Virus record (IMG/VR): IMGVR_UViG_2880372215_000004
DNA from: a virus
Lineage: Duplodnaviria > Heunggongvirae > Uroviricota > Caudoviricetes
Direction: 5' to 3' (one strand)
DNA: 64,000 nt
The translations under genes were made by a program, and so were the position numbers. Positions 52,660 through 56,899 of the stretch are shown piece after piece (position 1 is the stretch's first letter; each line of letters opens with the position of its first letter). A model generated the notes under the pieces. That model was not told where the DNA came from. It searched no databases and was given only the letters and a program-made list of their open reading frames with translations.

Positions 52660-52705
52660 TTAGAGGCCTGTGAGCCTGTTTAGGATTCTGTGTAAATGCC
52701 TTTTC

Positions 52706-53340
52706 TTAAAAGTGACCGTCAAGACGGTCACCAAACTCGATAATAAAGCGGCTCATTGCCATTCGCCAGTCCCTTAACGGCATTGTCCATTTCTGTGACG
52801 CGGCCTGGATTGCCAGCCACACCACTTTTTTTACTGACTCGTCCGTCGGGAACACCTTGCGTTTCCTGATGGCATGCCGGATCACACTGTTCAGCGACTC
52901 GATGGCGTTCGTTGTGTAGATCACTTTGCGGATATCTGCCGGATAAGCGAAAAACGTCGCCAAGTTAGTCCAGTTTGACAGCTAGCACCGGCTTATCTGC
53001 GGATAGCGGCAGTCCCAGGCCGCAGCAAACGCTTCCAGTGCCTGCTGGCCTGCCTCTTCTGTGGGAGGCTAATCGCTTTCAGGTCGCGAGTGACGGCTTT
53101 GTATTCCTTCCATGACACGAAGCGCATGCTGTTGCGCACCATATGCACGATGCATAACTGGATGCGGGCCTCCGGGAATTCTTTCAGGCCATACACACAG
53201 GCGATGAGGATATCGTTCAGACCGCGGTTTTTCAGTTCAGTCAGCACATTGAACCAGAAATTCGCCCCTTCATTTTCGGCCAGCCGCATCCCCAGGAGCT
53301 CTTTCTGACCTGCGATATTGATGCCCAGTGCTAGGAACAT
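52706..53340 (-). mobile_element. degraded IS256-family transposase remnant, two ORF fragments
   Basis: ORFs 52706..52963 and 52993..53340 match the copy at 56039..56850 but with garbled junction; IS end GATTCTGTGTAAATGCCTTTTC at 52683. Confidence 0.6.
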
Positions 53341-53624
53341 TTTTATGATAAAAAATTAGTGCAAGAAGACAAAGAATCGCCTTGCGCTAATGCTCTGAAA
53401 CAGGTCACTAATATCATCTAAATAGTTGACTCATAGTGACAGCATGTGTTGTGTCTTGCAGTATTATATAGCCTATTATTTAGATTGAAGCCATCATAAT
53501 CTATTGATGTTAATGGTTTTTTATTGTTTGTTGTTCGGCTTTTTATACTAATTTGAGCGAAACAAAAAGATAAAAAGTTGTTTTTCGGTAAGCGTACAGC
53601 GAGGGCCGTATTGACGGGGATGTG

Positions 53625-55163
53625 TTATTCAGCTGGCAGTGCTATGCGCCACGGAAGCAGTTCGCTGACCCGGTTGACCGGCCAGTCTGCTATGACGCCA
53701 AGCACATGGCGAAGGTAGCTTTCTGGATCCACGTCATTCAGTTTGCACGTCCCGATCAGGCTGTACAGTAGCGCTCCCCGCTCACCACCATGATCAGAGC
53801 CGAAGAACAGGAAGTTTTTACGACCCAGACTGACCGCCCGCAGGGCATTTTCAGCGATGTTGTTGTCGATTTCCACCCAGCCATCGTTCGCATAGTACGT
53901 CAGTGCCGGCCACTGGTTAAGTGCGTACGCGAACGCCTTCGCCAACTCTGAGTGTCGCGACAGGGTCTTCATCTTTTCACGCAACCAGCTTTCCAGGGAT
54001 TTCAACAACGGTTTCGTTTTTCGCTGACGTTCAGCAAGCCGCTGCTCTGCCGGCATTCCCCTTATATCCGCCTCTATGGCGTACAACTGACCGATCTGCT
54101 CCAGGGCTTCTTCCGTCAGTGCTGACGGGATGCGGACGTGCACATCGTGGATCTTTCGGCGGGCATGAGCCCAGCAGGCAGCTTCCGTTATCCCACCATT
54201 GCGATACAGCTCGTTGAACCCGGCGTACGCATCCGCTTGCAGCACACCGCTGAAGCAGGCAAGATGAGTCTGCGGATGGATGCCTTTTCTGTCCGGGCTG
54301 TAAGCGAACCACACTGCAGGTGCCAACGCTGACCCTGCATTGCGGTCATCACGAACATACGCCCACAACCGCCCGGTCTTCGTCTTCTTATTACCCGGCA
54401 GCAGTACCTGGACCGGGGTATCATCGGCATGGAGTTTGCCGTCAGTCATGACATAGCCATGAAGCGCCTCTTCCAGCGGAGACAGCAGCCGGCAGCATGC
54501 ATCCACCCAGCCCGACAGCAGTGAACGCCTCAGCTCCACACCTTGCCGGCCGTATATTTCTGACTGGCGATACAGCGGGGTGTGCTCTGCATACTTCGAG
54601 GTCAGCACGCGGGCCAGCAGCCCCGGTCCGGCGATACCCCGCTCGATGGGCCGCGAAGGTGCAGGTGCCTGCACGATGGCATCGCACTGAGTACAGGCAT
54701 GTTTTTCCCGTACCGTCCGGATAACCCGGAAGGCGCTACGCATCAACTCCAGCTGTTCGGCGGTATCCTCGCCCAGATAGCTCAGTGAACCGCCGCAGTT
54801 CGGGCAGCACGGCGCCGCAGGCAACAGTCGCTTTTCGTCACGGGGTAGTGATTCAGGGAACGGCTTACGGGTGCGGGTCTGACGCAACGGACGCTGTACT
54901 GCCGGGTCATACACCCTACCAGTCAGCGTATCGCTCTCTTTCTGAAGCCGGTTCAGATCGGCTTCCATTTGTGCGATACGGCGGGAGACTTTTTCGGAAC
55001 GACTGCCGAAGTTCATCCGGCGGAGTTTATCCAGCTGCGCCTGCAGATGGTCTATTTCGCGCTCCCGGTTGCTCAGCTTTTCCTGCAGGGCGTGGATCAG
55101 CGCTTCCTGTTCGGCCAGGCGCTGTTTCAGCAGGAAGATGTCGTCAGAAGAGATGTCGTTCAT
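53625..55163 (-). CDS. tnpC: IS66 transposase TnpC, 512 aa
   Basis: ORF track; zinc-finger CPNCGG...CTQCD. Confidence 0.8.
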
Positions 55164-55212
55164 AAGCCCGTATTTTACCGGGCTTATTCTGTGACAACCA
55201 GGATAAAGAGAT

Positions 55213-55560
55213 TTACAGCATGGTCAGGGAGGTCAGCAGCCGCTTAGGCTGTCGCCAGTCGATACCTTCCAGCAGCATCGCCAGCTGCGCCTGCGTAAGG
55301 AACACTTTGCCATCACGGGCTGACGGCCAGGCGAAGCGCCCACGCTCCAGCCGTTTGGTCAGGAGGCACAGTCCGTCACCGGTGGACCACAGCAGTTTAA
55401 CCTGACTGCCGCTGCGGCCCCGGAAAATGAAAACATGGCCGGACATGGGATCGTCTTTCAGCGCCGTTTGTACTTTCGCAGCCAGGCCGTTGAAGCCATT
55501 TCTCATATCGGTGATACCGGCAACCAGCCAAATTTTGGTCCCGGAAGGTAACGGGATCAT
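55213..55560 (-). CDS. tnpB: IS66 TnpB, 115 aa
   Basis: ORF track; IS66 operon position. Confidence 0.75.
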
Positions 55561-55958
55561 CGCTTCAGTTCCTGTATCAGCAGAGTCAGGAGCTTTTCGC
55601 TGACATTGCCATTGAAGCGGAGCGTCCCGTGCCGGAACGTTACCTCACAGCTGATACTGAGGGTTTCCGGGTCCTCTGCGAGCGATTCTGGCTGTTCGGC
55701 AGCTGCATCGAGAGTCACAGGAAGTAGCTGGGGGCTCTCTGAAGAAGGTAATAGCAGCTTTCCCTCGCGCCATTGTTGTCGCCATTTGAACAACAGATTT
55801 GCGTTAATGCCATTTTCAAGAGCAAGTTTTGAGATGGATATCCCGGGTTCACAGGAGGCAGCAACGAGCTGCTGTTTAAATTCGGGAGGATAATTAGGGC
55901 AGCCTTTTCGCCTGCCGGGAGTCACATTTTTCTGCATATCTGATACTTTGGTTCCCAC
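55557..55958 (-). CDS. tnpA: IS66 TnpA, 133 aa
   Basis: ORF track; HTH-like N-terminus. Confidence 0.7.
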   Translation of the reverse strand: MGTKVSDMQKNVTPGRRKGCPNYPPEFKQQLVAASCEPGISISKLALENGINANLLFKWRQQWREGKLLLPSSESPQLLPVTLDAAAEQPESLAEDPETLSISCEVTFRHGTLRFNGNVSEKLLTLLIQELKR

Positions 55959-56038
55959 TACTTATTTGGTGGACACCACTTTGTCTAATTCGTCAGATTC
56001 TGACCAGACGGTTCAGGCTGTACGCTTACCTGATGTCT

Positions 56039-56850
56039 CACCGGCGCTGGTATCGAAGGTCACCGATGCCGTTATGGAGCAGGTAGTCGAATGGCAAAAC
56101 CGGCCACTGGATGCGGTCTATCCCATTGTTTATCTTGACTGTATTGTCCTGAAGGTTCGGCAGGACAGTCGCGTAATCAATAAATCCGTATTCCTCGCAC
56201 TGGGTATCAATATCGAAGGCCAGAAAGAGTTACTGGGTATGTGGCTGGCCGAAAACGAGGGAGCGAAGTTCTGGCTCAATGTGCTGACTGAACTAAAAAA
56301 CCGCGGCCTGAACGATATTCTCATAGCCTGTGTCGACGGGCTGAAAGGCTTCCCGGACGCTATCAACACGGTGTATCCGGAAGCCCGCATCCAGCTGTGC
56401 ATCGTGCATATGGTGCGCAACAGCCTGCGGTTCGTTTCCTGGAAGGACTACAAAGCCGTCACCCGCGACCTGAAAGCCATCTACCAGGCCCCCACAGAAG
56501 AAGCAGGCCAGCAGGCGCTGGAAGCGTTCGCCAGCGCCTGGGACAGTCGCTACCCGCAGATAAGCCGGAGCTGGCAGGCAAACTGGACCAACCTGGCGAT
56601 GTTCTTCGCTTACCCGGCAGATATCCGCAAAGTCATCTACACAACCAACGCCATCGAGTCGCTGAACAGCGTAATCCGGCATGCCATCAAAAAACGCAAG
56701 GTGTTCCCGACGGATGACTCAGTGAAAAAGGTCGTGTGGCTGGCAATCCAGGCGGCTTCACAGAAATGGACGATGCCACTGCGGGACTGGCGTATGGCAA
56801 TGAGCCGCTTTATTATCGAGTTCGGTGACCGCCTGGACGGTCACTTCTGA
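56039..56850 (+). mobile_element. IS256-family transposase, 5'-truncated by the IS66 element
   Basis: ORF 55948..56850 runs out of the IS66 inverted repeat; IS end at about 56875. Confidence 0.65.
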
Positions 56851-56899
56851 GAAAAGGCATTTACACAGAATCGTGTACAGGGTCGATTTTACTCGTTAA

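Follow-up and report, generated by a model that had tools for sequence, protein, structure and literature searches.

A stretch of prophage DNA from Escherichia coli O157:H7, listed as the IMG/VR virus record IMGVR_UViG_2880372215_000004 (Duplodnaviria; Heunggongvirae; Uroviricota; Caudoviricetes), contains a complete copy of the insertion sequence (IS) ISEc8, a member of the IS66 family. The whole stretch of 64,000 nucleotides that was analysed is called the window here. The ISEc8 copy, at 53588-56029 on the minus strand, is very probably a recombinant that arose by homologous exchange between two identical, inverted ISEc8 copies. One of these resides at the right end of prophage Sp9 and the other at the end of prophage Sp12 in strain Sakai. 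Its derivation from two copies would explain why the element in the window has no matched 8-bp duplication at its ends.

The proposed course of events starts with two independent insertions of ISEc8 in the O157:H7 lineage, both normal and both accompanied by 8-bp duplications. The first would have entered the right end of Sp9, in the spacer that separates an IS1414 remnant from espO1-2, duplicating GTTTTTCG; the second would have entered an intact 1,317-bp IS256-family element at the Sp12 end, duplicating CTGATGTC. Homologous recombination across the 2,442 bp of identity, presumably through the host RecA pathway, would later have swapped the flanks. One product would be the hybrid in the window, in which ISEc8 joins the left flank of Sp9 to the right flank of Sp12, with Sp11 beyond. 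The other would be a reciprocal hybrid that leads from nleG7 and the 5' part of the IS256-family element through ISEc8 to espO1-2, and the TerA-dif-TerC segment would have been inverted. The missing matched duplication thus reflects later recombination and not a different insertion mechanism.

ISEc8 copies and their insertion sites

The copy in the window has the full length of 2,442 bp and the IS66-family gene set, with tnpC (53625-55163), tnpB (55213-55560) and tnpA (55557-55937) on the minus strand. The transposase matches the Pfam families DDE_Tnp_IS66 (2e-106), zf-IS66, LZ_Tnp_IS66 and DDE_Tnp_IS66_C, and the other ISEc8 proteins match TnpB_IS66 (1e-38) and HTH_Tnp_1. The NCBIfam models transpos_IS66 and IS66_TnpB and the IS66 TnpA model recognize them as well. 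The terminal inverted repeats start with GTAAGCG and comprise a perfect core of 13 nt inside an imperfect repeat of 22-23 nt. Within the 64-kb window this terminal 13-mer, GTAAGCGTACAGC, has just two occurrences, at 53588-53600 (plus strand) and 56017-56029 (minus strand), compared with 0.07 matches expected from shuffled sequence. A preliminary description of the region had located the IS66 inverted repeats at 53588 and 56038. The former position is right, but the latter marks the end of the flanking 8-mer, the element itself ending at 56029.

The same description had reported that the flanking 8-mers differ and that the two flanks are unrelated, and both statements hold. The left 8-mer, GTTTTTCG (53580-53587), borders an AT-rich intergenic spacer, and the right one, CTGATGTC (56030-56037), lies in the interior of an IS256-family transposase gene. 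It had also been considered that refined IS66 ends might reveal a matching target duplication. The ends are now fixed to the base by both parental copies and both empty sites, and no such duplication is present.

The 8-mers find their partners in Sakai, where each is half of a perfect duplication around a separate ISEc8 copy. The Sp9 copy (1807305-1809746) has GTTTTTCG on both sides and is followed by espO1-2, nleG and espM1. The copy at the Sp12/Sp11 junction (2206654-2209095) is on the opposite strand, has CTGATGTC on both sides and lies inside the 1,317-bp IS256-family element. The two copies are inverted, 397 kb apart, and show 0 differences over 2,442 bp. In the window, GTTTTTCG corresponds to the left half of the duplication at the Sp9 insertion and CTGATGTC to the right half of that around the Sp12 copy. 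The hybrid therefore bears flanks from two parents, each with its own duplication, and an 8-bp duplication that is perfect in both Sakai parental copies is absent from the element in the window. Rearrangement instead of simple insertion, as was first suggested, is borne out by this arrangement. That the rearrangement was mediated by an IS is also correct as far as ISEc8 is concerned, with the refinement that homologous recombination after two ordinary insertions, and not transposition, accounts for it.

Alignments to Sakai extend well beyond the element. Positions 46001-56029 of the window match Sakai 1799717-1809746 (Sp9) at 99.99%, so that the ISEc8 copy in the window agrees with the Sp9 copy at 99.99% over this 10-kb alignment. 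It is collinear with the Sp12 copy at 100%, and the window segments 53588-57002 and 56999-63200 match the reverse complement of Sakai 2198170-2209095 at 100%, apart from a 1,310-bp IS629 in Sakai. The junction in the window is thus made up of ISEc8 with the left flank of Sp9 and the right flank of Sp12, all at 99.99-100% identity.

Both insertion sites are also found without ISEc8. A synthetic query with a single GTTTTTCG was used for the empty Sp9 site, which is uninterrupted, with a single GTTTTTCG, in 248 genomes. Among the matches listed, LSU61 and 493/89, two O157:H7 strains that branch early, reach 100% identity, and strains of O26, O103 and O145 reach 99.9%. The gene order in LSU61 is nleF, IS1414 remnant, espO1-2. 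The reconstructed 1,317-bp IS256-family element is present intact and at 100% in O55:H7 strains, 493/89 and LSU61, with nleG7 and the dinI-like gene as its neighbours on either side in LSU61. The existence of both empty sites, together with the matched duplications in Sakai, means that the Sakai-type arrangement is primary and that of the window derived.

Recombinant junctions and the terminus region

The four possible junctions were searched in 5,426 complete E. coli genomes. The parental Sp9-type junction occurs in 275 genomes and the parental Sp12-type junction in 217, whereas recombinant junctions of the window type are present in 12 and those of the reciprocal type in 15. The reciprocal query was built as predicted, from nleG7, the IS256-family 5' piece, CTGATGTC, ISEc8, GTTTTTCG and espO1-2, and it was found at full length and 100% identity in the 15 genomes. 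These include every one of the 12 genomes that carry the window-type junction.

The 12 genomes comprise 11 independent strains and 20R2R, with Canada, the USA, the UK and Korea as the countries of origin. The 'culture mutant' 20R2R was considered as an independent laboratory event and rejected as such, since it is a laboratory derivative of PA20 and the junction is already found in that strain. Nine of the 12 genomes have their hybrid copies on opposite strands, about 0.4 Mb apart, a pattern that is the signature of simple inversion. The distance in strain 8368 is 396 kb, compared with 397 kb between the parental copies in Sakai. Two of the carriers, Z869 (UK, phage type 21/28, lineage I) and Z1834 (UK, phage type 8, lineage II), come from published work on O157:H7 rearrangements. 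Other sequenced strains tabulated with them, among which are two isolates of lineage II from the farm of Z1834, are not among the 12, assuming that the collection includes them. This distribution over lineages I and II speaks for multiple origins or for reversion.

In Sakai, TerA (1,842,451), dif (2,115,290) and TerC (2,133,079) have been mapped (PMC7430833, Tables S1 and S7). All three lie between the two ISEc8 copies, and TerD and TerB lie outside, so an inversion flips the inner fork trap as a single block. Arithmetic on the table coordinates indicates that dif would shift by about 214 kb and that the Sakai replichores would change from 2,894/2,604 to about 2,680/2,818 kb.

Alternative explanations

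Junctions of this kind could be produced in other ways. If directly repeated ISEc8 copies in tandem Sp9 and Sp12 prophages had recombined, the result would be a deletion and not an inversion. It would remove espO1-2, nleG and espM1 along with the greater part of Sp12 and leave the nleF-ISEc8-dinI junction but no reciprocal product. The window alone cannot reveal a reciprocal junction, and a direct-repeat substrate is conceivable given that the two target sites of LSU61 are 52 kb apart on the same strand. However, the reciprocal junction accompanies that of the window in 12 of 12 genomes at 100%, including the three with the full architecture of the window, and LSU61 has no ISEc8 at either site, so that a deletion is very unlikely. 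Slightly less credit still is due to an assembly chimera, in which contigs would have been misjoined across the 2.4-kb repeat. O157:H7 genomes hold about nine identical ISEc8 copies each (PMC7430833), and such repeats break short-read assemblies. Both junctions are nevertheless present in 12 complete assemblies (the 11 independent strains and 20R2R), the geometry of nine of them fits a simple inversion of about 0.4 Mb, and three of the 12 share the wider architecture of the window.

The transposase itself might have made the junction. It is textbook knowledge that intramolecular transposition can yield inversions flanked by inverted IS copies that lack matched duplications. A single ISEc8 would have transposed replicatively into the IS256-family element, giving the inversion and the second ISEc8 copy in one step; alternatively, an adjacent deletion would have removed one duplication. 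Against this, each copy exists separately with a perfect 8-bp duplication in 217-275 genomes, and both copies therefore predate the rearrangement. The right flank in the window, moreover, starts exactly with the pre-existing CTGATGTC, and involvement of transposition at this step is hardly credible. The outward-facing IS256-family terminal repeats on both sides could finally be taken for the ends of a 4.2-kb composite transposon that mobilizes ISEc8 as cargo. Yet the ends come from two distinct elements with about 85% identity, the transposase gene of each is truncated, and the ends are 400 kb apart in most genomes. The outer 8-mers, aggcctgt and gattttac, differ, and the full unit (52672-56884) was seen only at this locus, in 12 genomes, with no occurrence at another locus with a target duplication. 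With neither an outer duplication nor an intact transposase, a composite transposon is excluded for practical purposes.

Homologous exchange between the two ISEc8 copies remains the preferred explanation, and several observations weigh against it. Three genomes, 380-94 (NZ_CP104309.1), RV06 (NZ_CP103864.1) and PA11 (NZ_CP145942.1), have the reciprocal junction without that of the window; their state suggests a further event at the nleF-side copy, for example exchange with a third ISEc8 copy or loss by deletion. The reciprocal junction was seen in related genomes, the best of which matches the whole architecture of the window at 99.7% (compared over 22000-46500). Because the two copies do not differ, the crossover point cannot be placed within ISEc8, and the recombination enzyme and the order of the rearrangements are what we infer.

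Flanking IS256-family remnants

The sequences on the two sides of the hybrid include incomplete IS256-family elements, which the preliminary description had taken as two incomplete, inverted copies with outward-facing ends at about 52683 and 56875. Their incompleteness and outward orientation are correct. The true terminal repeats, however, end at 52672 and 56884, about 10 bp further out, and the remnants are not copies of one element. The left one (52672-53340, minus strand) is a remnant of IS1414, of which only the 3' part is left, with frameshifts and internal deletions. Its outer terminal repeat, at 52672, lies 12 bp past the nleF stop codon, and two of its open reading frame (ORF) fragments match Pfam Transposase_mut (3e-13 and 1.5e-21). 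A remnant of astA, encoding EAST1, overlaps it in another frame at about 53079-53174 on the minus strand; its start is missing and the peptide reads RRPASSYASCIWCATACASCHGRNTKPSLAT. An IS256-type transposase with an embedded astA frame is thus recognizable in a degenerate and truncated element. The available annotations agree, since the Sakai annotation describes the left fragment as 'IS1414 Family: IS256 partial' and the Prokaryotic Genome Annotation Pipeline (PGAP) reports a 21-amino-acid 'EAST1 family' ORF at the astA remnant of strain 8368. The truncation of the IS1414 remnant predates ISEc8, because the remnant is identical in the genomes with an empty site. Between it and the left 8-mer lies a native, AT-rich intergenic spacer of 239 bp (53341-53579, not assigned to a strand) that belongs to the Sp9 effector locus. 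In genomes without ISEc8 at this site, the spacer lies between the IS1414 remnant and espO1-2.

The right fragment (56030-56884, plus strand) comprises the 3' 855 bp of the 1,317-bp IS256-family element and is called 'ISEic2 partial' in Sakai. It covers positions 131-377 of the 379 in the Transposase_mut profile, so that all three IS256-type reading frames of the window match this family, and it also matches the NCBIfam model transpos_IS256. Only the right terminal repeat is present; the 5' 470 bp with the left terminal repeat are at the reciprocal junction. The fragment is therefore a member of the IS256 family, as part of an element that was split by ISEc8. The left and right fragments share about 85% identity over 683-695 aligned bases, and 86-90% in ungapped blocks. 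They are different elements, about 400 kb apart before the exchange and juxtaposed by chance, and they took no part in the rearrangement.

Second rearrangement in the upstream prophage

The prophage upstream of the hybrid ISEc8 is itself composed of two parts. Positions 1-23000 (plus strand) hold an Sp10-type early region with integrase, xis, recT, recE and regulatory and replication genes. Up to about 23 kb the window has no mismatch to Sakai from 1921609, which lies in Sp10 and not in Sp9, and from about 41 kb it has none to Sakai Sp9. The segment at 23-40 kb is a mosaic. Its first 6 kb or so, from the lysis genes to the start of the packaging genes, match either Sakai prophage poorly. The Sp9-type part (40000-53587, plus strand) contains the tail, tail-fibre and effector region, including nleA, and ends at the ISEc8 insertion point. 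Two further effector genes are annotated in it, nleH1-2 (51104-52024) and nleF (52090-52659). Collinearity of the whole window with strain 8368 and Sakai Sp9 was considered and rejected, as the first 23 kb are Sp10; the Sp10-type early part of 8368 is 280 kb away on the other strand.

A layout with ttcA, Sp10-early and Sp9-late regions, ISEc8 and Sp11 was found among complete genomes only in NCCP 15739, 2009C-3554 and AR-0428. These genomes match the window at 99.2-99.8% over the compared regions, and none is identical to it. The reciprocal ISEc8 junction is 168 kb upstream on the same strand in all three, as is expected if the ISEc8 inversion was followed by an inversion between the Sp9 and Sp10 late regions. 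The hybrid upstream prophage accordingly points to a second, nested rearrangement between Sp9 and Sp10 in the source genome. In this second event, exchange between the homologous late regions would have created the Sp10-early/Sp9-late hybrid, and the net effect of both events would be that about 164 kb were moved, inverted, to the other side of dif. An equivalent route would be the excision of a 164-kb circle by Sp9 x Sp10 exchange and its re-entry through ISEc8. By either route the nleF-ISEc8-dinI junction was made by homologous exchange through ISEc8.

Within 27000-40000, the window and the genomes of NCCP 15739, 2009C-3554 and AR-0428 all differ, also from one another, and do so only in patches of head and tail genes. 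The patches look like ongoing gene conversion among homologous lambdoid prophages.

Neighbouring genes and other layouts

To the right of the IS256-family fragment, the window continues with a terminal piece of Sp12 and then with the integrase and early region of Sp11 (56885-64000, plus strand). The Sp12 piece includes a dinI-like gene (56900-57142, minus strand), next to which lies a truncated integrase. At 56999-57002, within the dinI-like gene, the window lacks the IS629/IS1203 of which Sakai has a 1,310-bp copy, and most other strains are without it too. At 57320-59100 of the window, both the integrase gene and recE of Sp11 are pseudogenes that have been truncated. The corresponding place in LSU61 carries an excisionase, a longer exonuclease gene and an integrase that is intact, a difference suggestive of a deletion within the recombination module of Sp11.

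Strains also vary in how prophages are arranged at ompW. The Sp9-type and Sp12-type effector ends of LSU61 are on the same strand with 52 kb between them. In EDL933, ompW is immediately followed by a prophage with an integrase, and a parental Sp12-type junction lies downstream at about 45 kb, also on that strand; in strain 3384 an Sp12-like prophage is located upstream of a parental Sp12-type junction. Other rearrangement or integration states of the region therefore exist. A link to the classic inversion that distinguishes EDL933 from Sakai was considered for 3384 and EDL933 and dropped; both have the parental Sp12 junction next to another prophage layout, and no clean relation emerged.

Possible consequences

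As the hybrid ISEc8 is complete, the exchange breaks no gene. It would split both Sp9 and Sp12, and the module of espO1-2, nleG and espM1 would now be placed beside Sp12. Sp9 has been reported to excise, replicate and be packaged in Sakai (PMC2669165). As its right attachment site has been moved and inverted, Sp9 should no longer excise as a unit in rearranged strains. Effector modules would also change place, and the replichores would change in length. Strains with the junction are thus expected to have an immobilized Sp9 and reshuffled effector loci.

It is a tentative and rather doubtful idea that the Sp9/Sp12 ISEc8 pair acts as a recurrent, possibly reversible flip point for TerA-dif-TerC across O157:H7 lineages. 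If this were true, each flip would lock the effector-carrying Sp9 in the chromosome, relocate espO1-2, nleG and espM1 and shift the replichore balance. Selectable effects on phage mobility or on virulence gene expression could follow, and published surveys that filter out repeats below 5 kb would have missed this class of boundary.

The swapped 8-mers provide a simple marker of the rearranged state for polymerase chain reaction or sequence searches, which is of use for typing outbreaks and for checking assemblies. The absence of a target duplication from an IS66-family element, anomalous at first sight, is explained by an ordinary mechanism, and the junction is real.

Comparison with known rearrangements

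The mechanism is textbook and the elements were already annotated, so the event is real and ordinary and of a known kind. Compared with the annotated Sakai ISEc8, the copy in the window agrees in its 2,442 bp at 100%, its three genes and its terminal repeats, but it lacks the matched 8-bp duplication. Rearrangements of the terminus region in O157:H7 were reportedly described by Iguchi et al. in 2006, a study cited in both surveys of this serotype. Terminus-centred rearrangements through recombination of prophage repeats are well documented in O157:H7 (PMC8743559, PMC7430833). As in the present case, the inversions described by Fitzgerald et al. 2021 (PMC8743559) and Stanton et al. 2020 (PMC7430833) arise where inverted prophage repeats flanking Ter recombine, span dif and recur in several lineages. 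The crossover substrate differs, being a 2.4-kb IS pair here and a prophage repeat of at least 5 kb in the published cases. Fitzgerald et al. excluded repeats below 5 kb on purpose, to avoid IS elements (PMC8743559). This exclusion accounts for the ISEc8 pair not having been named as a boundary in the papers searched, and literature searches returned no explicit description of an ISEc8-bounded Sp9/Sp12 inversion, nor any mention of the pair as a boundary. ISEc8 copies, besides long prophage repeats, act as terminus-spanning breakpoints in O157:H7, and filters against short repeats misassign such boundaries.

IS elements are also associated with inversions across the terminus in other bacteria. 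Inversions mediated by IS200 across the terminus of Salmonella Typhi are said to have been described by Alokam et al. in 2002, a study to which PMC7430833 refers. In Streptococcus pyogenes, IS elements give rise to terminus-crossing inversions (PMC11602124). The resemblance to both systems is close, as identical inverted IS copies serve as portable homology and hybrid IS elements with swapped duplications are the outcome. The IS family and the host are different in O157:H7, and the ISEc8 copies reside inside prophage effector loci, so that the exchange also splits two prophages.

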